Source: a virus. Taken from it: a stretch of 64,000 bases of DNA. The stretch is from the IMG/VR virus record IMGVR_UViG_3300021964_000014; one strand, written 5' to 3'. A program made the position numbers and the translations under genes. Below are positions 2,744 to 62,593 of this stretch, in pieces (within the stretch, counting starts at the first letter, position 1; each line of letters starts with the position of its first letter). The notes under the pieces were generated by a model that searched no databases, had not been told where the DNA came from, and saw nothing but the letters and a program-made list of their open reading frames with translations.

Positions 2744-4318
2744 TTACAATAACCAAGATATATCTTCTTGCTGTCCATAGCCATTATCTATAAGATAAGG
2801 ATTATTTTGCTGATTTCCAACTGATTTAATGACAGCTTTGTTTTTAGCGTTTAGATTCTGAAAAGAAGATAATTGAGCTCTAGCTAAATCCATACCTTGT
2901 TGTCTTAATCTCAATGCAGTATCTCTAACGTATAATGCAGTTGCTGCTGCTATTAGTAAATCATCGTTATAGTTAGTCTGTGCTTGAGGTTTACCGTTTT
3001 TCCATACAAATACACGCATCTCTCCTAATAGCCTCTTAGATTGTATAGTAACTCCTCTTTCTCTAATGTACTCTATCATTTTAGCTACTACCAAAGGTCT
3101 AGTTCTAACTGACATGGTAAAGCCAGGTACTAGTTTATCTCTTTCATATTTAGACATATAGGATTCTACAGTTTCCATTTGAGAGGTAGAACTGTAGTAT
3201 AAGTTACTGTATTGACGTTCTAATATCTGTTCTATAGTAGCCCATCCTATATTTGCATTTTCTACTACTAATAACGCATCGTTATACTCTGATGCAATTC
3301 CTACTAATACATTACCGAAGTCTTTAGGAGATAATTTACCTTTATATTCACCAACCTGTGTACAAGTTTCTATATCAAATATATGAAATGCAGAATAATC
3401 GGCAGAATCACCTCTAGCGACGTCAGCTACTACCATATAAGATTTAGTAAAATCTACTCCTTCCCATATCCATAAGTTACCATCTACACCTCTTTTTTCC
3501 AATGGTTCTTTTAAGTATGTTTGCTCGTAGAACATCATATCATCTGGTTCAAATACTGTATCACCAGAAGCTAAGAAATCACAATCACACTCTTGTCCGG
3601 CCATTCTAGGTCCTAGATCTGAGTCTTGTTGATCTCTCCATTCTTGATCTCTTTCAGGATGTACCGTCCAAGGTAATCTTATAGGTAAGAATGAATTCTC
3701 ACCACTTTCAGCTTTTTCCCAAGTTTGATGGAACCAGTTACCAATACCATTAGGTGTTGATAGAGCCATACATTGACCACCGGTTGCTAGTGTTTGTTGT
3801 GCTGCAGTAAACGTTTCGTCAATGTTATCAACAAAGGCTGCCTCATCGATAAGTAGTAATGATACTGCTTCGGATCTTGCTGCATCAGTATTAGAAGATT
3901 TCGCTGTAATTTTAGATCCATTTTTTAATCTTAAAGATAATTTATTCTTTTCTACTGCTTGTAACCTTAACCATTTAGGTAACTGATCGTACATAAACAT
4001 TGTCTTAGAAACTAAGTTACGAGCAGTTGCTTGTGTTGTAGCTAATGCTAGTACGTTTTTATCTTTATGAAATAACATTAACCATAAAGAATAAGCAGCA
4101 GATAAAGTTGAGATACCTAACTGTCTTGACTTTAAAGTAATTATGTATTGATTGTCTCTAAATAAATGTAGTACTTTAGACTGGAAAGGATAGAGATTAA
4201 ATAATATTCTACCTCTAGTAGGGTGTTGAATATAACAGTACTTCTTCATAAAGTACGCCGGATCTTTGGCGCACTTGATATACTCTTGTGCGATTATTTT
4301 TTTTATGTCTTGACTCAT
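2744..4318 (-). CDS. Terminase large subunit, T4 gp17-like
   Basis: Walker A LKSRQLGIST, Walker B LLLIDEAAF, LSTPNG coupling motif, RNase H-like ADVARGDSADYS and NDDL. Confidence 0.96.
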   Translation of the reverse strand: MSQDIKKIIAQEYIKCAKDPAYFMKKYCYIQHPTRGRILFNLYPFQSKVLHLFRDNQYIITLKSRQLGISTLSAAYSLWLMLFHKDKNVLALATTQATARNLVSKTMFMYDQLPKWLRLQAVEKNKLSLRLKNGSKITAKSSNTDAARSEAVSLLLIDEAAFVDNIDETFTAAQQTLATGGQCMALSTPNGIGNWFHQTWEKAESGENSFLPIRLPWTVHPERDQEWRDQQDSDLGPRMAGQECDCDFLASGDTVFEPDDMMFYEQTYLKEPLEKRGVDGNLWIWEGVDFTKSYMVVADVARGDSADYSAFHIFDIETCTQVGEYKGKLSPKDFGNVLVGIASEYNDALLVVENANIGWATIEQILERQYSNLYYSSTSQMETVESYMSKYERDKLVPGFTMSVRTRPLVVAKMIEYIRERGVTIQSKRLLGEMRVFVWKNGKPQAQTNYNDDLLIAAATALYVRDTALRLRQQGMDLARAQLSSFQNLNAKNKAVIKSVGNQQNNPYLIDNGYGQQEDISWLL

Positions 4319-4322
4319 AACT

Positions 4323-5399
4323 TTAGAAGTTATAACTGAATCGTGGTAAGCCGTCTTTCATGTAGATAGAAATCTTAGTACCAACTGCATCTACTAATTT
4401 ATTTGCAGGTACTACAGCATAATTTCCAGACTTATCATCTAAGAAGAATATTTCTTCAAATTCTTCAGTTTCTGTATATAACTTTATCACTTTTTTAGAA
4501 AACGCTTGTTCTGCAGCATCTGCATCTATTTCGTTTCCTTTTTTATATTTCTTTAAACTAAAATCAGAAAAATCTATTCCTGGGTAGTTACTTCTTAATG
4601 CACCATCCATTGCATCTATCGATGCATCAATTTTATCACTTTCTTGTTCTGCTACAACTGCAAGGATTGTGTTTAATCTATGTAAAGGTCTTTTACCTTT
4701 AGTATCTACTTGAATAGGATTATCTAATTTTGAATTAACTGCTGATATAGCATCCTGTATAAATTTCTTATCAGTATTTTTACCAAATTGAGCTTTTTGG
4801 CCCATTGGTATAGCTCCTCTATTTTTTACTTCAATACCTTTCTTACCAACTCCAACATCACCAGAAGGAGTATCTCCATTAACATCTGCTGTTAAAGCAC
4901 ATAGAAAAACCTCTCCTTTACCTGTAGCTACATTACCTATTTGAGGTTTGATATCGAATAAAAAATTAATCGTTTCATCTGAGAATAATTTTTTAAATTT
5001 TTCTTTTAAGTTACCAGAGGAACCTAAATCAGCATAAGTTATAGCACCGTCGGTAATATACTTATGATATGTTTGAATATCTCCATTTTCTACCATTCTG
5101 TTATAAATGGTTTTAGAAATAGAAGCTACTGATTTGCCTTGTTTATCTAAGAACGATAGTACATCATCCTTATAGGCTACACCAGATATACCGTTGAGTA
5201 TAGATTTTAATTGTTCCGGAGAAAACTCTCCTTTTTGTATGGCATCAATAACTTCTGCTTTAGATATTTGTCCATCTGCATTAGTTAATTCAGCAATTAA
5301 TTTATCTAATATTGCTTTATCTTCAGCATTATCCATAGATGGAGTACCTGTTTTAGATCTCCATGCCCATTCTGTATATAATCTATCTGTTACGTTCAT
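4323..5399 (-). CDS. Putative PD-(D/E)XK (restriction-endonuclease fold) protein with N-terminal EWAWR leader
   Basis: GKGE...GDVGVGKKGIEVK resembles the E...(P)D...ExK catalytic pattern. Confidence 0.5.
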   Translation of the reverse strand: MNVTDRLYTEWAWRSKTGTPSMDNAEDKAILDKLIAELTNADGQISKAEVIDAIQKGEFSPEQLKSILNGISGVAYKDDVLSFLDKQGKSVASISKTIYNRMVENGDIQTYHKYITDGAITYADLGSSGNLKEKFKKLFSDETINFLFDIKPQIGNVATGKGEVFLCALTADVNGDTPSGDVGVGKKGIEVKNRGAIPMGQKAQFGKNTDKKFIQDAISAVNSKLDNPIQVDTKGKRPLHRLNTILAVVAEQESDKIDASIDAMDGALRSNYPGIDFSDFSLKKYKKGNEIDADAAEQAFSKKVIKLYTETEEFEEIFFLDDKSGNYAVVPANKLVDAVGTKISIYMKDGLPRFSYNF

Positions 5400-7522
5400 T
5401 ATGCTTCTGGTTCTTCTGCTGGTTCTTCAAAATCAACTGGTTCTCCTGTTAAGTCAGCTCCACCTTCTTCACCGCCTTCTTCTCCTCCAAGGTCGTCAAC
5501 TCCTAGATCGTCTCCACCACCTCCGGCAGCATCATCTCCAGGAAAATCACCTCCACCGCCTCCAGAAGAGCCTCCTGAATCTACATCAGCAGCTTCTCCT
5601 TCTCCGGCTCCGGTCATTGGACCTTCTTTGTATAATACAGCTAATTTATCTAACGCTTGTTGATAATCGTTTATTTTGTCGATATAAAATCTTTTACCCA
5701 TTATTTGAGCTTGGAATCCAGTACCGGTCCATTTTAAGATATAATCTTGACCGTTCTTTAAGTTGATTCTAAATTCAGTAGGTCTTGGAGAAATCCAATC
5801 TACACTATCAACAAATTCTTTAAAGTCTTCTGTTTGTAGTTTTATAATAGCTGCTTGTAGTGTAGGAAATTTAGCTAGTATTTGATCTGTAGCATCTTCC
5901 AGTACTGTATCTTTAGGAGCTTCTTCATCACCTTCTTCTTCAGGTTCTGGCTCTTCTTCTTCTTTAATATCGTCTAATAGACTTTCTGCTAAACTAAGTT
6001 TACCTTCTTTATAGTAGTCTGGATCTTCATAGTAATCGTCTTCTTCTCTTCTACGTTGTTCGTAGTCGGTATAATCATCATATCTATCTTCATCACTTTG
6101 AGCGTAATTTAATAAGTCGTTTAACGCAGCACTATTATGTAATCTAGGATTTATAATTCTAAGTGTATTAGGATGAGTATCACCTCTTCCTGTGAAGAGT
6201 TCGTAATCTATACCTTCTTCATATTTCTTTTTTAAATAATCTACAACAGCTTGTATTGCGTCTAAATCATATCCAAAATGAACTTCATCATTTGAATTTT
6301 CATTTATATCGTATCTTTGCAGTGCGCTCATTATACGATCAATTTTCTTATCTATATCATTAAGTATAGCTCCATAATCATCTGCAATTGGACCTCCTTC
6401 AGGTTCAGCTTCTTGCTCCATATTTCTTAAAACATCAGCTCTTTCGTCTTCTAAGTCTTGAAGTTTTAATCTCAAGTCCATAGCTTTCTCTAAACTGATA
6501 CCACGGGATTTAGGTGCTTTATCTTTAGGTTGTTGTGCTTTCATTCTAGCAGCTCTCACTTTGATAGCAACTGGATCGTTAATATCCATTCTTTCATTAA
6601 TCTTAGAAAAAGCTGATTCGATGCCTTCCATCATTCTTTGCATCTTAAGCAGATTATATTGCTCAGGTCTTTCTGTTCTTAGGTAGCTTTGTAATTTTCT
6701 AAAATTAGTTTTAGTTAATTCGAAAAACTCTCTAGCTGCTTGATCAGTTCTTATATCATCAGATCCCATTAGTTTTTTAATGTCACTTATAATATCTGAA
6801 AAGTTTTTATATAGAGATCCAAATGAAGGTAATTTAATTACCTTATGTCCTATAGAGCCTGTTTCTTTATTTTTTTCATATGTTTTAAAGTAAGTATCCA
6901 TATTAGAACTAAAGAAATCATGCTTACCGCCAAACATCGGTTCACCATATCTTTTAACAATACCAGCTCTTTGTTTATCTGTTAAGTCTTCCCACTGAGT
7001 AACTCTACTTCCAGCTTTCTTTTCCATGTCAGCTTTTGGCATTTCATCTATAGTACCAGAAGTATTTCCTCTATCTTTATAAAAGTCATGCTGTGCTTGT
7101 GCTTCTCGGCCTAAACCGCCCATCACATGATCAACTATGTCTTTTAAACCTTCAGCTGAAATAGCTACTGGTGTGTAGTTACCATCTGTCATATAAGAAT
7201 CGATTCCAACAACACCTGATTGTCCTGCTTTTCTCATTCCTGCTTTGATAGCATCTTTTTGATCAATTCTATAACCACTCATTCTACTGATTGTAAACTT
7301 ATCAGTGTCTTTATTATACTGGAATATTACTGCTTGAGGAGCTCTACCTTCACCTTTACTTACCATATAACCTTCTACTCCTTCTTTAGGCGGGTAACCA
7401 TCTGGTCTACGTTCTGTTAGGTCGTACCCTTTTGACTTAAAGTAATCAAATAATCGGCCACCATCCATTTCGTTAAGTAGCTGTCCGTAGGACTCTAATA
7501 TGAGTTTTTCTAATTTATGCAT
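5399..7522 (-). CDS. Multi-module acidic protein, putative head-packaged polyprotein
   Basis: N-terminal MHKLEKLILE tag; segments separated by LNE, IDE, INE, IKE; acidic Gly-rich tail. Confidence 0.55.
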   Translation of the reverse strand: MHKLEKLILESYGQLLNEMDGGRLFDYFKSKGYDLTERRPDGYPPKEGVEGYMVSKGEGRAPQAVIFQYNKDTDKFTISRMSGYRIDQKDAIKAGMRKAGQSGVVGIDSYMTDGNYTPVAISAEGLKDIVDHVMGGLGREAQAQHDFYKDRGNTSGTIDEMPKADMEKKAGSRVTQWEDLTDKQRAGIVKRYGEPMFGGKHDFFSSNMDTYFKTYEKNKETGSIGHKVIKLPSFGSLYKNFSDIISDIKKLMGSDDIRTDQAAREFFELTKTNFRKLQSYLRTERPEQYNLLKMQRMMEGIESAFSKINERMDINDPVAIKVRAARMKAQQPKDKAPKSRGISLEKAMDLRLKLQDLEDERADVLRNMEQEAEPEGGPIADDYGAILNDIDKKIDRIMSALQRYDINENSNDEVHFGYDLDAIQAVVDYLKKKYEEGIDYELFTGRGDTHPNTLRIINPRLHNSAALNDLLNYAQSDEDRYDDYTDYEQRRREEDDYYEDPDYYKEGKLSLAESLLDDIKEEEEPEPEEEGDEEAPKDTVLEDATDQILAKFPTLQAAIIKLQTEDFKEFVDSVDWISPRPTEFRINLKNGQDYILKWTGTGFQAQIMGKRFYIDKINDYQQALDKLAVLYKEGPMTGAGEGEAADVDSGGSSGGGGGDFPGDDAAGGGGDDLGVDDLGGEEGGEEGGADLTGEPVDFEEPAEEPEA

Positions 7523-7523
7523 A

Positions 7524-10181
7524 TTATTTGTTTTTCTTTTTGTAGTCTTTATGCCAGTGTTCTTTTTGAGTAACTATTTTAAGTTCTTCAACAGGAATAT
7601 CTTCTACTACTTTTTTACCTTCTTTAAATAATACGTCATAATGAGTAACAACATATTTATTTCCTTCTTTTATCAAAGTATGTTTCTCTGGAATGCAAAT
7701 ACCTTCTCCGTATGTTTCATGTACTACTTTCGCTGCACAATCGTGTTTATATCCAGGAGCTGATTCTTTGGATAGTTTATCTAAATACTTAGCTTGATCG
7801 CCATGTCCTTTAACAGACTTCTTTAATTGCTTTACAATCTTTTTAACGTCTTTCTTTTCTTTCTTATTTAATTCAGCTTCATTCTTTTCAGCTTTAGTAG
7901 CGTAAATAGCTTTTCTTTGAGCGTCAGATTTATACTTACCTTCATCCATATCATCTTCTTCTTCATCGTAATATTCTTGAATCTCTTCGATGATAGATTC
8001 TAATGTAGTGTCGTATCTATTAGAACTTGAACCGAAATCAAAGGCACCGTAAGCATCTCCTTTAGATAGCATTCTTGGAAACTTCTCTCTAACAATTTCT
8101 CTAGCTTCATCTCCTTTTTGAGCCAACTCATCTAAAATAGCTTGTAGATCATAGATAGCATTTTTTTGATCTGATGAAAGTTCTGTTAGTTCTTGTCCTT
8201 TATGAGTACCTGCTACTGCTTGATCTAAATGTTTTTCTAATTCTTTCTTTTTAGCAGTTAAATCTTTTAATTGATCTACTACTGATTTATCACCGGCTTT
8301 ATATTGCTTTGCTAATTCTTTCATCTTATTAACAACTTGACCGTATGCTTTTTGAATTTTAGCTGCTTTTATTTCATCCATATTTTTACGTCTTGGATAT
8401 TGAGTTGACATATCTCTTAAGTCACCAACAACTGATTGCATTGCTTTAGCTAATGTTTCAAACTGATCAGCAGTAACTTGAATATAATCTCCTCCAAATT
8501 CAGTTTGTGATGGTACTGTAATTTGTACCATTACTCCTTTTTTACCACCAGAGAATCTTTTTATTTGCATCCCTCCTTTATCGTATAATTCAGTACCTTC
8601 GTTAACTCCTTCTTCTAAAGCTAACTTATCAATAAGAGGCTGCTTTTCTTCTGAGTCTAAATAATGATATGCTGCAGACATATAATCTCTAGCTAAGATT
8701 AATTTCTTTTGCCACCAGTTAGGAAAATCTACTTCTCCGTCTACTTGATCATATTGAGCTAATTTCTTTGCTAATTTAGCAGCATAGGTAGCTGTTTCAA
8801 AAGCAGAAGACTTTAACATACTAGGCTCATCATCTTGATGTCCTACATCTAAATCTCCTCCTTGATCTTCTACTTCATTTTCTTTTAAGTACCCTAATTG
8901 TTTAGCATACTTATATCTCAATCTAGCATCATCACCAGGTCTTTTACCGAAAGTATAGTTAGGGTCTCTTCTAACTGAGATATCAATATCACTAGCAGCT
9001 TTAGAACCAAGTTTTTCTGTATCACTAAATCCTAGTGCATTTTCTTCAATTGATTCATCCATTTCGGCTGAATGATCTACTACTTCAATATCGTTAGCTT
9101 GTAGATCCATCACTACATCATTCATAAATCCACTTGGATCTTCGTCTGGTTCTTGATATAATTCTGGGTTTTCTTTTCCTTCTGGATCGTCATACATATC
9201 GTCGAATCCGTATTCATGTCTGAATATAAAGTATATAATTACGTTTCCTGCTCCGTCGTCGTCTACTACTTCTGTTTTTACGTAAGTTGGATCTACATTA
9301 TTATCTAAAATAGACATTGTCTTTTTGTAATCTCTTCTAGATACTTTTAAGTAATGGTGATCATCTCCTTCTCCTTCTTTAACTCCCACTTTATCTCTTT
9401 TAGCAAATACCTTTTCTTTGTCTTCATCAGATAGTTGACTAAAATCCTTACCCCCAAATTCTTTATGAGCAATTAAATCCAATCTATCTGTTTCTTCATG
9501 GCTCAACTCTCTACCTTTATAATTTACTTTTTCATTTAGAGATTTGAAGTGTTTTAATAGCTCATTTGCTAGTACATCAACGTTAACGATTGCCTCTCCT
9601 GAAGGTTTAACACCTACATTAACTAGCTCTTTGTCAAATGAAAAATCCACTAGGTGCAACGAATCGTCGCTAATATAAAAAGAAAATTCATCTTCTCCTC
9701 CTTCACCTTTGTATACTACTTGAATATCAAAACTATTGGTATCTATACGATGAGCTTTCATTCTAGCTAATTCATCACCAGCTTTTTTTAATGCTATAGC
9801 TAATGCCTTTCCTACTTGTGTAGCGATGGCTTTAGTCTCATTTTTATCGAATTCGACTCCTGAGGTTTTATCTAATTTATCCACTTCTTTTAGTTTTTGT
9901 CCTTTTGCAGAATCAATTCCAGTTATATTTGGATCTTTTTTAAGGTCCATAGCAGTTTTTCTATCCATTGCAACGGCTTTAGTATCGCCGCCTTTGGTAG
10001 AGATAAACATAGTTTCTTCTTTTTCTGCTAATTGCTTCTGTAGGGATTCTTTTATGGTAGTGAGTTGCTCTACTGTTTTAGTAGAGAAGTGTTTATCTAA
10101 TGCAGGTGACTTAGTAGAGTGAATGCTTTGCAAAGCGGATTCTACCTGCGTTAGACGGTTTTTGATTTCATCGTACGTCAT
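7524..10181 (-). CDS. Multi-module protein, putative head-packaged polyprotein
   Basis: About ten short segments joined by [LIVM]xE; C-terminal HDCAAKVVH...THYDVLF module; TATTTATA motif upstream. Confidence 0.55.
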   Translation of the reverse strand: MTYDEIKNRLTQVESALQSIHSTKSPALDKHFSTKTVEQLTTIKESLQKQLAEKEETMFISTKGGDTKAVAMDRKTAMDLKKDPNITGIDSAKGQKLKEVDKLDKTSGVEFDKNETKAIATQVGKALAIALKKAGDELARMKAHRIDTNSFDIQVVYKGEGGEDEFSFYISDDSLHLVDFSFDKELVNVGVKPSGEAIVNVDVLANELLKHFKSLNEKVNYKGRELSHEETDRLDLIAHKEFGGKDFSQLSDEDKEKVFAKRDKVGVKEGEGDDHHYLKVSRRDYKKTMSILDNNVDPTYVKTEVVDDDGAGNVIIYFIFRHEYGFDDMYDDPEGKENPELYQEPDEDPSGFMNDVVMDLQANDIEVVDHSAEMDESIEENALGFSDTEKLGSKAASDIDISVRRDPNYTFGKRPGDDARLRYKYAKQLGYLKENEVEDQGGDLDVGHQDDEPSMLKSSAFETATYAAKLAKKLAQYDQVDGEVDFPNWWQKKLILARDYMSAAYHYLDSEEKQPLIDKLALEEGVNEGTELYDKGGMQIKRFSGGKKGVMVQITVPSQTEFGGDYIQVTADQFETLAKAMQSVVGDLRDMSTQYPRRKNMDEIKAAKIQKAYGQVVNKMKELAKQYKAGDKSVVDQLKDLTAKKKELEKHLDQAVAGTHKGQELTELSSDQKNAIYDLQAILDELAQKGDEAREIVREKFPRMLSKGDAYGAFDFGSSSNRYDTTLESIIEEIQEYYDEEEDDMDEGKYKSDAQRKAIYATKAEKNEAELNKKEKKDVKKIVKQLKKSVKGHGDQAKYLDKLSKESAPGYKHDCAAKVVHETYGEGICIPEKHTLIKEGNKYVVTHYDVLFKEGKKVVEDIPVEELKIVTQKEHWHKDYKKKNK

Positions 10182-10206
10182 CGTAGTGTGTTTTATTGTA
10201 TAGCTA

Positions 10207-10214
10207 TATAAATA
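10207..10214 (-). promoter_or_regulatory. Putative late promoter TATTTATA
   Basis: Intergenic, upstream of ATG 10181. Confidence 0.65.
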
Positions 10215-10220
10215 AATAGA

Positions 10221-10850
10221 TTAACTCTCCCAAATAATGTTTTTAAACTTTTCAGGGGATAATCCAAAATAATCTGTTCTCCATTGAGTTTGATCAAAGA
10301 AATCTAAATTATACCATTGGTCTTTCTTTTTCCATAGCTTTTTAGCTATATCATCCCAATCTTGTTTAACAACGAATTCTTCAATTTCTTGTTTCTTTTC
10401 CATCACATGGCAGAAATTAAAAGAATCCCATTCATAGTGAAAAACTTCAAAAACTGCTTCTGGAGACACATAATCTATTGATATATCTATTCCCCATTTG
10501 GGTTTCATTTTAACTAATTTCCATAACATTGGATTATCTTCTTCAGCAATATGCTGTATTTGTTCTAATGCTGTGGAATAAAATCCTTTTCTTTCAAATA
10601 AGTCTGAATGGTTTATATGTGCTCCTTCTTTCTTATCCCAAGTAATCCAGTCGTATCTTAAACAATCTTCATGTCTTCTTTGGATAGGTTTAAAACCATT
10701 ATAAGTAAGAAAAGCCTGTTCGGCTTTTGTAAGGTGATAACCATTTTGATCAAATAAATCTACACAGTTGGGATCTTTTAGAGTTTCTATATCTTCAGTA
10801 GGGTCTAAAAAATAAGCATTTCGATGTAATTTATTATCTGTTATTTTCAT
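10221..10850 (-). CDS. Conserved hypothetical phage protein
   Basis: 209 aa, well-formed globular ORF (FDQNGYHLT, INHSDLFERKG, PKWGIDISIDY). Confidence 0.75.
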   Translation of the reverse strand: MKITDNKLHRNAYFLDPTEDIETLKDPNCVDLFDQNGYHLTKAEQAFLTYNGFKPIQRRHEDCLRYDWITWDKKEGAHINHSDLFERKGFYSTALEQIQHIAEEDNPMLWKLVKMKPKWGIDISIDYVSPEAVFEVFHYEWDSFNFCHVMEKKQEIEEFVVKQDWDDIAKKLWKKKDQWYNLDFFDQTQWRTDYFGLSPEKFKNIIWES

Positions 10851-11073
10851 TCTTTTTTCCTGATTTCATATTAGCACACCAATGATACATTTTTCCTTTC
10901 TCACCGCCGTACTTTTTAGCTTTTGCTCTCAAGCTAGTTACAGAACCTTTACAACTAGCTCCAGATTTTTTTACTCTACCTGGTCTAGATTTACCTTTAA
11001 CTTTACCATCTTTAAAGTTTTCATCTAATACTTCTTTTACGAGTTCTAATATTTGTGACTTTTTAAAGGGCAT
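10834..11073 (-). CDS. Small basic protein, putative internal head protein
   Basis: Leader ending LVKEVLDE followed by Lys-rich module NFKDGKVKGKSRPG...HWCANMKSG. Confidence 0.65.
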   Translation of the reverse strand: MPFKKSQILELVKEVLDENFKDGKVKGKSRPGRVKKSGASCKGSVTSLRAKAKKYGGEKGKMYHWCANMKSGKKNENNR

Positions 11074-11260
11074 TTCTTCTTAATAATTCTCTTTTAATTA
11101 TATTCTTTTTCTTTCTATAAGAATTACTTTCATACATCTTTTTTAATTCTTCTGTAGATGTATTAGACGGTGTATAATGAATCCAGGTAAATGTATTTAA
11201 CATCTTACCTCTCTTGTCTTTATCGTATTGTTTAGTACTAGGTTTTAATTTAGCAGGCAT
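11063..11260 (-). CDS. Small basic hypothetical protein
   Basis: Likely start MPAKLK at 11260 (TAATG coupling to upstream stop). Confidence 0.65.
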   Translation of the reverse strand: MPAKLKPSTKQYDKDKRGKMLNTFTWIHYTPSNTSTEELKKMYESNSYRKKKNIIKRELLRRNAL

Positions 11261-11739
11261 TATTTCTTTTTCCAAATTTCGCCTCTTCTACAACGAACAA
11301 CTGCCCCGGAGGCGTATGCTGACGGCCAGGTGTCATATTTTTGTTTTGCTAATCTAGTACATCTATCGTCTTTCTCCATTATAACCTCTTTACCTTCTCT
11401 TTCTTGTAATAAACCTACAACTAGATTTCTAATATCTTCTCTTGTTACTTTTGCTTTCTTAGTATTTTTCACGACTTGTTTTCCTTTAGATCCGGCTTTC
11501 TTTTTCTTTTGAGCTGTTGCTGCTCTTTGGCCTTTAGTTAAACTCTGTGCTTTAGCTTTTGGTAAACATCTATCAGGATTCTTCTTATTTTTAGAAGTAC
11601 CACAAGGTCCTGCTATATTACCAGAGGATGATATTCTCACCCACTTTTCTTTTTTAAACCAATCACGTAAAGATTCCTGTACGAGTTCTCTCATAAAAGC
11701 ATAAACATCGGCAGGTATCTTTTTATTGGTATCGGTCAT
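11260..11739 (-). CDS. Basic two-module protein, putative internal head protein
   Basis: LVQE|SLRDWFKKEKWV...CLPKAKA module, then IME|KDDRC...WPSAYASGAVVRCR module. Confidence 0.7.
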   Translation of the reverse strand: MTDTNKKIPADVYAFMRELVQESLRDWFKKEKWVRISSSGNIAGPCGTSKNKKNPDRCLPKAKAQSLTKGQRAATAQKKKKAGSKGKQVVKNTKKAKVTREDIRNLVVGLLQEREGKEVIMEKDDRCTRLAKQKYDTWPSAYASGAVVRCRRGEIWKKK

Positions 11740-12122: not shown

Positions 12123-12136
12123 TATAAATATAAATA
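12123..12136 (-). promoter_or_regulatory. Two overlapping putative late promoters TATTTATA
   Basis: Intergenic, upstream of ATG 12098. Confidence 0.6.
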
Positions 12137-13362: not shown

Positions 13363-13490
13363 TTTCTAGTGACTTTTTTTTCATAAGGCATATCTTGTAT
13401 CATGGTTGTGCTTCCGCATTTACTACATTTTGCTAAATATGAACCTGTTTTCCAGTATGACTTGATCATATACTCGTTACAGCACTTCAT
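13350..13490 (-). CDS. 46-aa zinc-ribbon micro-protein (not in ORF track)
   Basis: MKCCNEYM...AKCSKCGSTT...; TAATG coupling with upstream stop. Confidence 0.6.
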   Translation of the reverse strand: MKCCNEYMIKSYWKTGSYLAKCSKCGSTTMIQDMPYEKKVTRKVGS

Positions 13491-15163
13491 TAACTATTCT
13501 TTAAATTATCTTCCCAGTTTCTAAAAGTTATATTGCCTAATGTATATGCTTCTTTTTCTAATTCTAATAACTTAGAATCAGCAGTAGTATCTTGTGTCTG
13601 TATATTATGTAAAGTACCTTGTAAGTTTTGCATATGATGAATCATTTCATGAGCATATGATCTTACAATATCTTTATCATGTCTTCCTAAGGTATATAAA
13701 ACTATTTCTCTAGCATTAGGATCGTAGTATGCTGTTTTACCAAAAAAGTTAGAAGCATTTGCTTCATCTTTTCTTAATTTAACTTCAGGTAAAGGTTCTA
13801 TATTCATTCCATTATCCAACATGTATTCTGTTAGAGAAGTAATATAGTCTTTGAGTTGAGGTTTGGATTGTTCTACACCTTCTTTCATTTCTGGATGAAA
13901 CATAAACTTAACAATGGTAGCATCTTTAGCTACTTCTTTACCGTCTATTTCTATTCCAATTGGATAAGGTTTAGTTTTATCATCTGCCCAATAAGCTACG
14001 TCGTAACTTTTATCTTCATTACTTGTTACTAATAGACCTCTATTGTATGTATCTTCTTCTGCTTGGAGTACAACCATTTTACCGGTAGGAAGAATCATAT
14101 CACCCATTAGTTTAATATCACCTTCGTCGTACCCGTCTTTATTATATCGATTTTCCTGTAAATTAGAAATATCAACAACCCATATTTGAGGGTCGATTCC
14201 ATTCTTTACTAATCCTGATAGTCTGGTATTACCAGCAACTAAGTCGTAATCGTTGTCAGAGAACTTAACAGCTATCGACATTTCGATTGTACCTCTTTTA
14301 AATGCGTCTAAGAATCTTTGTTTTTTAGGTTCTTCTAAACTATCAAAGTTGAGGTCTACATTTCCTAAGTTTCTTTTAATAGAACTATAAGAAACAGGTT
14401 TTCCTTTTTTAGCTATATTTAACCAACCTTCTTTACCCATTTTTACAAATTCTGGGTATCGGTTAGCTTCTTCCCATTCAGCATCAAAGTTAGGATTAGT
14501 GTATGTTATGTCTTTATTTTCATTAAAGTAACCTTCTACAAATCCTTCAATATTTGATCCTAATATTTCTGCTACTATTTTATCTTTCAAATCGTTTAAT
14601 ATATTTAATATTTCTTCTCTAGATAATTCTTCAGGGAAAAAATCTACAATTGTATCTAAATTACCAGATAGTATATTCTTTCTAAAATCTGTTGCTCTTA
14701 CTCCTGATCCAGGTGCTGATGCAAAAGCTAACCCTTGTACGTTATCAACGTTGTTAAATGTTGTAACTCTCCTTAGATCTACAAAGTCTTCTTCACCTCT
14801 TATCCCTGTTACTGCTACAAATTCACTTTCTGTATTTTCTCTTGCATAATCTTTAGCAGCAAACATTGGATTTTTTTGTCCATCTACTATTTCAACATTA
14901 CCTAGATGTTTCTTATAAATATTCCAAATATGAGTAGCTTCCTCTTTATCTATTCCATTTCTTTCTCCTCCACCTATAAAAATGATTACTTTATCTATTT
15001 TAGGTTTATTGTTATTATTACCTTTAAATAAACTTGAAGCTTTATCTTGGTAATCATCTTTATTATATAACGTACCATTATAAGAGCCGTCGAGTAAAGA
15101 TTTTACTACGTTAAAATGACCTCTATGAGGTGGTTTAAATGCTCCTGGGTATAATGCTATCAT
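13490..15163 (-). CDS. Fusion: HxGH nucleotidyltransferase + ParB-like module + unknown module + HExxH metallopeptidase-like domain
   Basis: YPGAFKPPHRGH at N-terminus; DLVAGNTRL (ParB-like); RSYAHEMIHHMQ...LEKEAY at C-terminus. Confidence 0.75.
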   Translation of the reverse strand: MIALYPGAFKPPHRGHFNVVKSLLDGSYNGTLYNKDDYQDKASSLFKGNNNNKPKIDKVIIFIGGGERNGIDKEEATHIWNIYKKHLGNVEIVDGQKNPMFAAKDYARENTESEFVAVTGIRGEEDFVDLRRVTTFNNVDNVQGLAFASAPGSGVRATDFRKNILSGNLDTIVDFFPEELSREEILNILNDLKDKIVAEILGSNIEGFVEGYFNENKDITYTNPNFDAEWEEANRYPEFVKMGKEGWLNIAKKGKPVSYSSIKRNLGNVDLNFDSLEEPKKQRFLDAFKRGTIEMSIAVKFSDNDYDLVAGNTRLSGLVKNGIDPQIWVVDISNLQENRYNKDGYDEGDIKLMGDMILPTGKMVVLQAEEDTYNRGLLVTSNEDKSYDVAYWADDKTKPYPIGIEIDGKEVAKDATIVKFMFHPEMKEGVEQSKPQLKDYITSLTEYMLDNGMNIEPLPEVKLRKDEANASNFFGKTAYYDPNAREIVLYTLGRHDKDIVRSYAHEMIHHMQNLQGTLHNIQTQDTTADSKLLELEKEAYTLGNITFRNWEDNLKNS

Positions 15164-16092
15164 GCTAAAAATGCTTGTACTTTTGAATCTATTTCTTTAG
15201 GAGTTGAATGCTGTAAAAGTTTTTGAAACTTTTCATTAAATAACATATCAGCTATATTATCTAAAACTTCAGTTTCTCTTTGATCTTGTTTTGCTTTTCT
15301 ATCTCTATACTTTTTTAGAACATCTCTCATTTTATCTAATCCAGGTCCTACTCCATTTTTATCATAAGCATCTTTAAATGCTTTCTTTAAAGCTCTATCT
15401 TCTCCGTACCCTTCTTTATCGTAATCTAAACTACCAATATGTTTTTTAAACTCTTCTTCTTCTTGAGTAGATAATTCAATAGGTTTTCTAAAAGTAGAAC
15501 CCCCTATATTGTTTGCTTCATTATATCTTTCTAAATAATCTTTAATACCAGAAGGTCCATTTTTTGCTGCTGTATTAAAAGCTTCTATTTCTTTACTATA
15601 TTTTCCTCCTCTATCGGAAACATGAATAGCTAAATTACCATTAGTAATTTTATCATATTCAGCAATTAGTTGGTAAACATTTCTCCAGGTTGAGAAGACA
15701 GCTGATCCGGGTACGTTTCTATCAGCTCTAGAAAAGTTAGAAATATAAGAAATCATAGGGTGAGTATACACCATTACCATGAATACATTATACCCTTTAT
15801 TAATTAGCTCATTAACCTTCTTAGGGTTAGAAGCTGTCGTATCCCATACAAAGCTAGTTCCTTTGTCTGATAGTTCCTCCGCCTCTTTGTCCGCTAGTCG
15901 AGCCCCTTGAGATAGATTGTTGTACGCTGGATGATCCTTGTCTTCCACGTATTTGTCTGGGTTGACTTGGGGGAGTGATGATAGGTTTAACTGGTTTAAC
16001 AGGTATGTTTTCCCTGCTCCAGCTCCTCCCGCCATTACTACCACTTTCGGGCCTGAGGTAGATTCTAGGATTAGATCTGTTAATTTGATCAT
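15160..16092 (-). CDS. P-loop kinase, Zeta-toxin/AAA_33-like
   Basis: MAGGAGAGKT Walker A, VNPD, FVWDTT, R..R.VP lid; N-terminal MIKLTDLILE tag. Confidence 0.75.
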   Translation of the reverse strand: MIKLTDLILESTSGPKVVVMAGGAGAGKTYLLNQLNLSSLPQVNPDKYVEDKDHPAYNNLSQGARLADKEAEELSDKGTSFVWDTTASNPKKVNELINKGYNVFMVMVYTHPMISYISNFSRADRNVPGSAVFSTWRNVYQLIAEYDKITNGNLAIHVSDRGGKYSKEIEAFNTAAKNGPSGIKDYLERYNEANNIGGSTFRKPIELSTQEEEEFKKHIGSLDYDKEGYGEDRALKKAFKDAYDKNGVGPGLDKMRDVLKKYRDRKAKQDQRETEVLDNIADMLFNEKFQKLLQHSTPKEIDSKVQAFLA

Positions 16093-18247: not shown

Positions 18248-18280
18248 ATAATATAAGAAGAATTAGTCTAAATATCAACT
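18248..18280 (-). promoter_or_regulatory. Bacteroidota-type promoter for primase operon
   Basis: AGTTG-N20-TATATTAT. Confidence 0.75.
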
Positions 18281-18696
18281 AATTTTAGATGTTTTTTCTG
18301 ATTTACCATAACATTTGAAGGTCTGATATCTAATTCATCAGGGTTTATTCCATATTGTTGAGCTTCTCTTTCTACTGCATCAATCCATTCTTCCGGAATG
18401 TTACCTTTAAACTCTCCTAAAACCTCCATTTGTATAATACCTAATTTAGGGTTAATAACTTCTACATCGTATATTCTAGCGAAGTTATTTGTTTTTTTAC
18501 CTTTAAGTAGTTGTGCGTGTTCTAATTCGATTTCGTCTGTAGTTACTTTATATACTCTGCCGTTAAGTAAATAAGCAGATCCGTAGTCACCTGAGCCGAG
18601 GTGCTTTCCTCCTTGATCTAGTATTTTATCAACCTGTTTTTCAAAATCAGGATCATAGTACAAAATCTCTCCTAATATAACATGTGATAATCTCAT
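18268..18696 (-). CDS. Minimal protein-kinase-like protein
   Basis: LGSGDYGSAY Gly loop, VYKVT Lys, E helix, LDIRPSNVM catalytic loop, KLVDI; ORF ends at the metal-binding Asp motif. Confidence 0.75.
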   Translation of the reverse strand: MRLSHVILGEILYYDPDFEKQVDKILDQGGKHLGSGDYGSAYLLNGRVYKVTTDEIELEHAQLLKGKKTNNFARIYDVEVINPKLGIIQMEVLGEFKGNIPEEWIDAVEREAQQYGINPDELDIRPSNVMVNQKKHLKLVDI

Positions 18697-18700
18697 ATCT

Positions 18701-19000
18701 TTAACTTACATCCATTGCATCATTGTGATCTGCTGCGTATCCTTTTTCTTTAAGTGCAGCCACAATTTGATCTAAAACGTCTATATCGTAGCTACTAGGA
18801 AGTTCTAATCCAGTTAAATCTTTTATAAACTTTTCTGCGTCGTCACCAAATCTAATTTTCTCTTTCCATTGTATATTAGCAGTTACTGGTTTATCGTATA
18901 AGTATATTCCGTAAAATCTTCCGTAATCAGTATATGTTATATCGATTCCTTTTATTTCAAAATCTACCTTAAACTCTAATATTACGCTACTTAACTTCAT
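18701..19000 (-). CDS. Hypothetical protein with MKLSSVILE leader
   Basis: 99 aa ORF in operon. Confidence 0.65.
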   Translation of the reverse strand: MKLSSVILEFKVDFEIKGIDITYTDYGRFYGIYLYDKPVTANIQWKEKIRFGDDAEKFIKDLTGLELPSSYDIDVLDQIVAALKEKGYAADHNDAMDVS

Positions 19001-21089: not shown

Positions 21090-21092
21090 ATA

Positions 21093-21125
21093 TAAATATA
21101 AGAAATAAATTCTGGGAAGTCAACT
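21093..21125 (-). promoter_or_regulatory. Bacteroidota-type promoter (overlaps a late motif at 21091-21098)
   Basis: AGTTG-N20-TATATTTA. Confidence 0.75.
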
Positions 21126-32916: not shown

Positions 32917-32924
32917 TATAAATA
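32917..32924 (-). promoter_or_regulatory. Putative late promoter TATTTATA (giant fibre)
   Basis: Intergenic, upstream of ATG 32900. Confidence 0.65.
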
Positions 32925-37334: not shown

Positions 37335-37342
37335 TATAAATA
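37335..37342 (-). promoter_or_regulatory. Putative late promoter TATTTATA
   Basis: Intergenic, upstream of ATG 37312. Confidence 0.65.
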
Positions 37343-39118: not shown

Positions 39119-39126
39119 TATAAATA
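39119..39126 (-). promoter_or_regulatory. Putative late promoter TATTTATA
   Basis: Intergenic, upstream of ATG 39105. Confidence 0.6.
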
Positions 39127-50433: not shown

Positions 50434-50441
50434 TATAAATA
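50434..50441 (-). promoter_or_regulatory. Putative late promoter TATTTATA (baseplate operon)
   Basis: Immediately after the sigma stop codon, upstream of ATG 50418. Confidence 0.65.
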
Positions 50442-62068: not shown

Positions 62069-62593
62069 TTATTTTGTATTAGGTTTCCCCATCATAACCT
62101 TAGTGTGTATTTTTGCTCCTAACTTTCTATCATAAGTACCATCTCCATTCCATTTGATATCCTTACCTTTGAGAGCTTTCCTAACTGTCTCTTCATCATC
62201 AACGATTGCTACTCCTTTTGCTTTTAGAATATCTAATATCTTTCCGGAAACTTCTATGTAGTATCCTTTTTTACTTAAGTCGTCAACTGTTTTAGCGACT
62301 GCAGCTGATCTTGCAGGTTTAGTACCATCATGGCCCATAGCAACTAACTTCTTTCCTCCTGCTCTATTCTTATATGTTACTGTAGCATCGTCTTCTGGAT
62401 CATCATCAAGATCGATAACTGAATAATTATCTCCTGCAGATTTTATATCATCAGGACTAGTCACATTAGGATGGCCGCCAAGAGGAGCATAAGCATTATC
62501 GATAAGTTTAAATAGTTCTTCTTTATCGTCTGCTATCTCTGCTGATGATAATGGTCTCCAGCTCTGCTCTAATAGTATCTTAGTTAACTTCAT
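62069..62593 (-). CDS. Hypothetical protein with MKLTKILLE leader
   Basis: 174 aa globular ORF. Confidence 0.7.
   Translation of the reverse strand: MKLTKILLEQSWRPLSSAEIADDKEELFKLIDNAYAPLGGHPNVTSPDDIKSAGDNYSVIDLDDDPEDDATVTYKNRAGGKKLVAMGHDGTKPARSAAVAKTVDDLSKKGYYIEVSGKILDILKAKGVAIVDDEETVRKALKGKDIKWNGDGTYDRKLGAKIHTKVMMGKPNTK

Follow-up and report, generated by a model that had tools for sequence, protein, structure and literature searches.

A 64,000-nucleotide stretch of an uncultured marine T4-type phage (IMG/VR record IMGVR_UViG_3300021964_000014, in the following the window) contains two large genes whose products are chains of small modules joined at hydrophobic-x-Glu motifs. Gene A (7524..10181, minus strand) encodes an 885-aa array of 11 modules, and gene B (5399..7522, minus strand) a 707-aa array consisting of a leader and modules N2-N6. 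These two genes and two small neighbours, encoding 79-aa and 159-aa proteins, probably specify precursors of prohead-core or internal head proteins that are cut at the joints by an S77 protease. That the arrays are cleavable and expandable is well supported, while we infer the loading into the capsid, the cutting itself, and the fate and functions of the pieces.

Modules and joints of the two arrays

Relatives of both open reading frames (ORFs) were found at 71 IMG/VR loci, in which similarity was mapped by BLAST and with a hidden Markov model (HMM) for each module; module borders were judged from ~60 related IMG/VR contigs. Across ~60 relatives, modules appear and disappear, change their order (M6-M7-M8, M8-M7-M6, M7-M6) and migrate between four or five genes. 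N2, N4 and N5 are located within gene A of some relatives, and M3 and M5 within gene B of others. The anchor modules M1 (gene A) and N3+N6 (gene B) are conserved in every relative. Furthermore, a variable gene between the portal and protease genes, outside the window, holds M3 or M10 in some relatives and also contains, as an internal unit, a 75-aa protein that stands alone in phage immuto. Module content differs even among relatives whose TerL proteins are 93-97% identical.

A preliminary description of this DNA had split both ORFs at a list of short motifs. All nine junctions listed for the 885-aa protein proved to lie at module borders (residues 217, 269, 380, 436, 528, 603, 667, 747 and 806), as did all five listed for the 707-aa protein (residues 18, 160, 310, 408 and 521). 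The pieces occur as stand-alone proteins (leader-bearing forms of N4 and M10 among them), in changed order and in other genes of the relatives, with breakpoints at the motif. The junctions had been called near-identical and acidic, which was overstated, as only Glu at P1 and a hydrophobic residue at P3 recur.

Simple enrichment of [LIVM]xE was rejected, since the total counts are at chance (24 vs 17.6 ± 3.6 in shuffled sequences for the 885-aa protein; 10 vs 13.1 ± 3.1 for the 707-aa protein). The motif is concentrated at the domain borders. When [LIVMFY]xE was scored within ±4 residues of HMM-defined module borders, it was found near 72% of 215 distinct N-borders vs 23% of random positions; note that the window borders had been seeded from earlier motif sites, so that colinear relatives are not independent in this count. 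The seeding is addressed by two further tests. At borders where the upstream module is unlike that of the window, the motif was present in 78% of cases (43/55) vs 23% for random positions, the largest of 500 random draws being 22. In 1.84 billion representative proteins, N4 was found in 727 clusters, at any position of proteins of 124-1056 aa. Among the best 150 matches, the motif was present at 135 of 143 N-borders (94%) vs 31 ± 5 at random (22%), with 130 distinct upstream 8-mers. Several N4 matches are stand-alone proteins composed of a 13-22-residue leader ending in the motif, followed by N4.

The residue preferences of the joints are simple. L/I/V/M is found at P3 of the Glu nearest the border in 63% of cases vs 21% for other Glu residues (Fisher p 2e-29). 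A junction logo gives L>V>M>I at P3, D/N/K/E/Q at P2, Glu at P1 and G/A/D at P1'; the choice of its anchor favoured a hydrophobic P3, and the Fisher comparison of Glu residues is the unbiased version. No DNA word is shared by the window junctions, and their codons differ, so the constraint is on the peptide rather than on a DNA word.

AlphaFold2 models were consistent with independent mini-domains, as the preliminary description had expected. Alignments of full-length relatives (A2 and A3) were used as input; an alignment including fragments (A1) was discarded because MAFFT smeared the fragments over the whole length. For both proteins the prediction was a set of small domains (alpha, beta or mixed) whose relative placement is not fixed (pTM 0.25 and 0.28). 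In the 885-aa protein, pLDDT drops below 50 at or next to all nine junctions (residues 218-223, 265-272, 375-419, 429-452, 518-529, 586-600, 659-669, 740-776 and 790-811), and in the 707-aa protein at or beside three of five, the other two lying at helix breaks; the alignments are shallow, with 23 and 31 rows, and disorder is not proven by a low pLDDT. The final 74 residues of the 707-aa protein were modelled as a disordered acidic tail. Searches for function gave no module a match to a family of known function (Pfam, PHROGs, fold searches): neither large ORF has a Pfam domain above threshold, PHROG matches are only to families of unknown function, Foldseek with the multi-domain models against PDB and BFVD gave no usable match, and neither did ESM Atlas with two anchor modules. 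In composition, strongly basic units (net +11 to +18) stand alongside acidic ones.

The chance-level motif counts, the borders without a motif and the failure of Pfam and PHROGs to detect a known virion domain would all suit proteins that stay uncleaved and work intact in the cytoplasm, with hydrophobic-x-Glu as a structural feature of linker ends, such as the end of a helix, or as a docking motif compatible with domain swapping. Yet Glu at P1 with L/I/V/M at P3 is the rule of T4-type proteases and is kept in 130 unrelated upstream contexts. Moreover, such proteins do not predict stand-alone modules behind a 13-22-residue leader ending in the motif, and the same motif marks the propeptide end of the major capsid protein (MCP). 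We consider intact multidomain proteins improbable.

Head protease, candidate leaders and probable late expression

T4 gp21 cleaves after L/I-x-E. In the relatives and in immuto, a 192-aa protein, an acidic scaffold and a gp23-type capsid protein are encoded a few genes past the portal. The 192-aa protein of the relatives matches Peptidase_S77 (PF03420, E 8.6e-36) and the T4 gp21 structure 5jbl (E 1.5e-23); S80 scores only 15.7 bits against it, below the cut-off. One protease-bearing relative (L005) has TerL and portal proteins 95% and 94% identical to those of the window, and an S77 protease is annotated in immuto (immuto26A_201). MCP propeptides of the relatives carry conserved LxE|G, LLE|G, ILE|N and V/L-x-E|A sites, the last of which lies just before the Gp23-matched region, and the scaffolds of the relatives are dense in V-x-E.

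A fixed P1 residue and stand-alone forms would be equally well explained by processing outside the capsid, by a host protease or a phage protease other than S77, as in RNA-virus polyproteins. We consider this very improbable: no protease but the S77 homologue was met among the scanned ORFs of the window and of the relatives' head regions, in a scan that was not exhaustive; a P1 Glu combined with an aliphatic P3 is the hallmark of prohead proteases of the T4 type, whose activity is inside proheads (PMC9026906); and the N-terminal leaders resemble capsid-targeting propeptides.

In T4, the core proteins are reduced to small pieces by gp21, which has many sites in them and also takes off targeting propeptides of 10-20 residues, in each case after Glu (PMC9026906, PMC5694885). 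The arrays could be a disposable scaffold of this kind, i.e., accessory prohead-core proteins like gp22, gp67 and gp68, which are cut and leave before DNA packaging and are neither cargo nor effectors. The acidity of many modules, the anchors kept in every relative and the related variable gene at the place of T4 gp67 and gp68, flanked by portal and protease, are in line with this. However, the relatives possess a separate gp22-like scaffold, several modules are folded or strongly basic like the retained T4 internal proteins, and module content varies at a TerL/portal identity of 93-97%, which is unusual for assembly parts. This fast turnover fits accessory cargo better, and a purely disposable role appears unlikely to us.

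The gp22-like scaffold of immuto (immuto26A_204, L073:5627-6868) is annotated as 'DNA polymerase phi-like protein'. In it, a unit of ~50 aa (GFEQWLDSVSAQMDKFGKNNP...) is duplicated in tandem, and each of its copies begins after VNE|G or LEE|G.

A candidate leader can be recognised at the N-terminus of the 707-aa, 79-aa and 159-aa proteins, and also on module proteins that stand alone. A tag of the form M-x(1,2)-L-x(2,3)-[LIVM][LIVM]-(G)-E, a pattern defined post hoc, starts 5 of the 59 window proteins vs ~0.08 expected from its internal rate. The carriers are gene B (5399-7522, MHKLEKLILE) and the ORFs at 15160-16092 (MIKLTDLILE), 18268-18696 (MRLSHVILGE), 18701-19000 (MKLSSVILE) and 62069-62593 (MKLTKILLE). 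One tag carrier is a P-loop protein, and the tag also heads small module carriers of relatives (L044:900-1331, L058:9008-9334). It is possibly a capsid-targeting tag on enzymes.

A candidate late promoter core, TATTTATA in sense orientation, is found at 10207..10214 (minus strand), 33 nt upstream of the 885-aa ORF. The extended form (C/A)TATTTATA(T/A)A occurs on the sense strand 9-38 nt before the starts of gene A, the portal gene, the gene after portal, the gene for a 3191-aa fibre and several others; candidate sites are at 800-807, 2730-2737, 10207-10214, 12123-12136, 21091-21098, 32917-32924, 37335-37342, 39119-39126 and 50434-50441. A T4 late promoter was rejected as the identity of this motif, which is not TATAAATA in sense orientation, the sense strand reading TATTTATA, the reverse complement of the T4 word; 26 of 27 TATAAATA matches are on the plus strand. 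Gene B, the 358-aa gene and the TerL gene follow gene A without gaps and without a motif of their own, so late co-expression of the arrays with the packaging genes is likely, as far as gene order and motif placement can tell.

Several points weigh against the proposal that the arrays are head-protein precursors cut by the S77 protease. A protein co-transcribed with TerL need not be part of the virion, and no virion proteomics or N-terminomics for immuto or its relatives was found in the literature. The protease gene lies beyond the edge of the window, the S77 enzyme being known from the relatives. Gene A has no short leader resembling the capsid-targeting sequence (CTS) of T4, its first candidate sites being E45 and E99, and the leaders that do exist have no testable sequence similarity to the T4 CTS. 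In addition to the chance-level motif count in both large ORFs, the seeded window borders and the shallow alignments behind the models, 22-30% of the borders have no motif within 4 residues, and P3 is not hydrophobic at every joint (LSKE, VKKE).

Organization of the locus

All genes of the window are on the minus strand, which applies to every window coordinate below. Their order is 119-aa gene, 159-aa gene, 65-aa gene, 79-aa gene, 209-aa gene, gene A, gene B, 358-aa gene, TerL, portal and a truncated gene at the edge. Thus, the block does lie upstream of terminase and portal as first described, with the 358-aa ORF (4323-5399) between gene B and TerL (2744-4318), followed by a T4-type portal gene (812-2701; PF07230, E 2e-68). 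The 358-aa gene has no family match. It is poorly conserved (78% identical in L005, 28-59% elsewhere) and was not found at 70% coverage in L002, the closest relative (TerL 97% identical). Megablast with the first 20 kb of the window against phage records gave no close DNA match. The closest cultured relative is Flavobacterium phage immuto (MW353175), which has a single 841-aa protein (immuto26A_192) at the equivalent position; in it, the start of gene A is combined with a single segment from the middle of that gene and with segments of gene B.

Residues 1-217 of gene A come first in every relative. They comprise M1a (9885..10181, residues 1-99, ending KLKE, with a conserved I-K-E45 inside) and the beta-rich M1b (9531..9884, residues 100-217, ending SLNE). 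The joint between them, E99 (KLKE|V), is additional to those first listed, and other modules are inserted after M1a in L031, L034 and L066. M2 (9375..9530, residues 218-269, ending GVKE) is also found in one gene-B and one gene-D relative. M3 (9042..9374, residues 270-380) starts with GEGDDHHY and ends MDE/IEE, the conserved end being MDE376 and not IEE380; in unrelated contexts its start is preceded by PLGE, DIYE, SLSE, FIKE, IVKE, GMEE or PLDE. M4 (8874..9041, residues 381-436) is rare (2 relatives) and modelled with low pLDDT. M5 (8598..8873, residues 437-528, core DLDVGHQD...FPNWWQ, ending GVNE) is immediately preceded by DQGG in the window; it is present in genes A and B of relatives and in two copies in the 841-aa immuto protein.

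The order of the next three modules is inverted to M8-M7-M6 in L023, L026 and L039. M6 (8373..8597, residues 529-603) starts with GTELYD and ends NMDE, with the motif at 15 of 15 N-borders; M7 (8181..8372, residues 604-667, ending ELTE) is helical and basic, and M8 (7941..8180, residues 668-747, ending DMDE) acidic. M9 (7764..7940, residues 748-806) is basic (net +11) and starts with GKYKSDAQ, preceded by VKQE, HIDE, VYQE, EMDE or PADE in unrelated contexts; at its end, LSKE, Ser takes the place of a hydrophobic residue at P3. M10 (7527..7763, residues 807-885) is a small beta-barrel that occurs alone with a leader in L062:21309-21749. This barrel (HDCA...H...YG.G.C) recurs with 36-48% identity in proteins of T4-like cyanophages annotated as cytidyltransferase. 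The 557-aa ORF of the window (13490-15163) starts with a nucleotidyltransferase-like PPHRGH motif.

The gene B leader (7469..7522, residues 1-18, MHKLEKLILE...LLNE) is kept in all gene-B relatives. N2 (7043..7468, residues 19-160, starting MDGG and ending TIDE) is located in gene A in L013, L019 and L028, and the motif is present at 10 of 10 of its N-borders and 11 of 11 C-borders. N3 (6593..7042, residues 161-310, ending KINE) is conserved and basic. N4 (6299..6592, residues 311-408) has the core DINDP...MEQEAEPEGGPIA and ends DINE, and N5 (5960..6298, residues 409-521, ending DIKE) matches phrog_23411. In N6 (5402..5959, residues 522-707), an acidic linker and a conserved alpha/beta domain are followed by a disordered Gly/Asp/Glu tail that ends EPAEEPEA. 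N3...N6 is the invariable end of gene B, with N6 last in every relative, and the minimal form of the gene in relatives is leader+N3+N6 (~340 aa). The tail (5402-5600) terminates in a nearly invariant FEEPAEEPEA across all gene-B relatives, a peptide that possibly binds a partner from the head or the packaging machinery.

The two small neighbours had been described as a leader followed by one or more basic modules after VLDE, LVQE and VIME, and this is how they appear in the light of the relatives. The 79-aa protein (10834..11073) has a leader (residues 1-18, ending VLDE) and one basic module (residues 19-79, net +16), which in relatives forms the last unit of proteins of 108-366 aa, where it follows h-x-E|N (h, hydrophobic). 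The 159-aa protein (11260..11739) has a leader (residues 1-22, ending LVQE), a basic module (residues 23-122, ending VIME) and a basic Cys module (residues 123-159). Its gene is a fourth array gene, with N4, N5 or M2 inserted between the basic modules in L026, L039 and L035. Within residues 99-159 of this protein (11263-11445), a leader-like helix (TREDIRNLVVGLLQE...VIME) precedes the second basic module and looks like an internal copy of a leader; in L035 the second basic module begins right after NLNE|K. The 209-aa (10221-10850) and 65-aa (11063-11260) ORFs within this span are conserved single units, not arrays.

Proposed processing and comparison with known systems

We propose the following route for the arrays as head-protein precursors. 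The arrays would be made late, on one transcript with the terminase gene, and the chain would be brought into the assembling prohead by its N-terminal leader in the case of gene B and the 79-aa and 159-aa proteins, and by the conserved first module in that of gene A. Once activated, the gp21-type (S77) prohead protease would cut after the Glu of hydrophobic-x-Glu at each exposed joint and so release ~20 products of 4-24 kDa, acidic ones as well as strongly basic ones. Modules could be inserted, deleted or moved between precursor genes without losing loading or release. As a joint needs only a short motif, modules are movable, which would explain their fast turnover.

Of the polyprotein cargo array envisaged in the preliminary description, the modular arrays, the motif placement, the flexible joints and the S77 protease (in relatives) have held up; the role of the pieces as effectors or DNA-condensing modules remains a guess, no module having a recognised function. 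In its widest form the idea is a plug-and-play capsid cargo, in which a small protein of any kind, once flanked by hydrophobic-x-Glu joints in one of 4-5 precursor genes, would be taken up by means of a shared leader or anchor module, freed by the head protease and delivered together with the DNA, and in which the set of cargo proteins would turn over much faster than the head genes. We advance this form tentatively and would not yet bet on it. If true, it would imply that marine T4-type phages hold a large and unexplored reservoir of proteins that are injected for host takeover or against host defences (N4 alone makes up 727 clusters). If prohead cutting of the joints does occur, the T4 rule of one leader and one protein extends to one leader and many proteins, and it becomes clear how large phages can change their injected proteins without touching the assembly machinery. 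Such cutting would also place hundreds of small viral families of unknown function, common in marine viromes, in the capsid interior as their likely location, and it would provide a natural way to fill a T4-type capsid with several proteins encoded by a single gene. As the cultured relative immuto has the same kind of gene, the idea is directly testable.

No description of such module arrays was found in the literature, and several known systems share some of their features. Polyvalent proteins likewise combine many unrelated domains in variable architectures, are encoded near terminase and portal, and are predicted to be packaged and delivered to the host (PMC5512222). They consist of known enzymatic or DNA-binding domains, often with an MPTase peptidase of their own (Iyer et al. 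2017, PMC5512222), whereas the arrays have no known domain and no own peptidase, and their release is proposed to proceed via the head protease at linker sites. Membership in this group was rejected, as neither large ORF has a recognised domain.

In phiKZ, 201phi2-1 and SPN3US, inner-body or ejection proteins are processed by gp175/gp245, which cut after Glu; these phages have long multi-site propeptides and large quantities of internal protein (PMC9026906, PMC5694885, PMC10052503). Their numerous processed head proteins are cleaved behind the Glu of a short motif, as is proposed for the arrays. In contrast, the phiKZ-type motif is S/A/G-x-E, the protease is of the S80 type, and propeptides are removed from single proteins, with no separation of chains of swapped modules. 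The protease of the relatives matches S77, and P3 is aliphatic, not S/A/G, in most joints.

The T4 core proteins gp22, gp67 and gp68 share with the arrays multiple internal L/I-x-E sites, acidic stretches, late expression and a related variable gene between portal and protease, but they are not mosaics of folded exchangeable domains. A scaffold of the gp22 type is a conserved, acidic coiled-coil protein encoded between protease and MCP, and in the relatives this place is taken by a separate gp22-like protein; the arrays, on the other hand, are encoded upstream of TerL and are built of mini-domains of mixed alpha/beta type.

The closest parallel is found in the T4 internal proteins IPI, IPII, IPIII and Alt with the CTS/gp21 system. 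In both cases there is a short leader (a candidate one in the arrays) ending in aliphatic-x-Glu and an S77 protease in the same phage group. The products are small and often basic (4-24 kDa predicted here vs 8-20 kDa in T4), and the gene set is highly variable and lies beside conserved head genes (PMC9026906, PMC3012670). The arrays have no sequence similarity to the T4 internal proteins or CTS. Furthermore, T4 has one protein per leader, while here up to 11 unrelated modules with internal sites share one chain, and modules move between several precursor genes. By analogy, the arrays may represent CTS/gp21-like loading as in T4, extended to many swapped units per chain.

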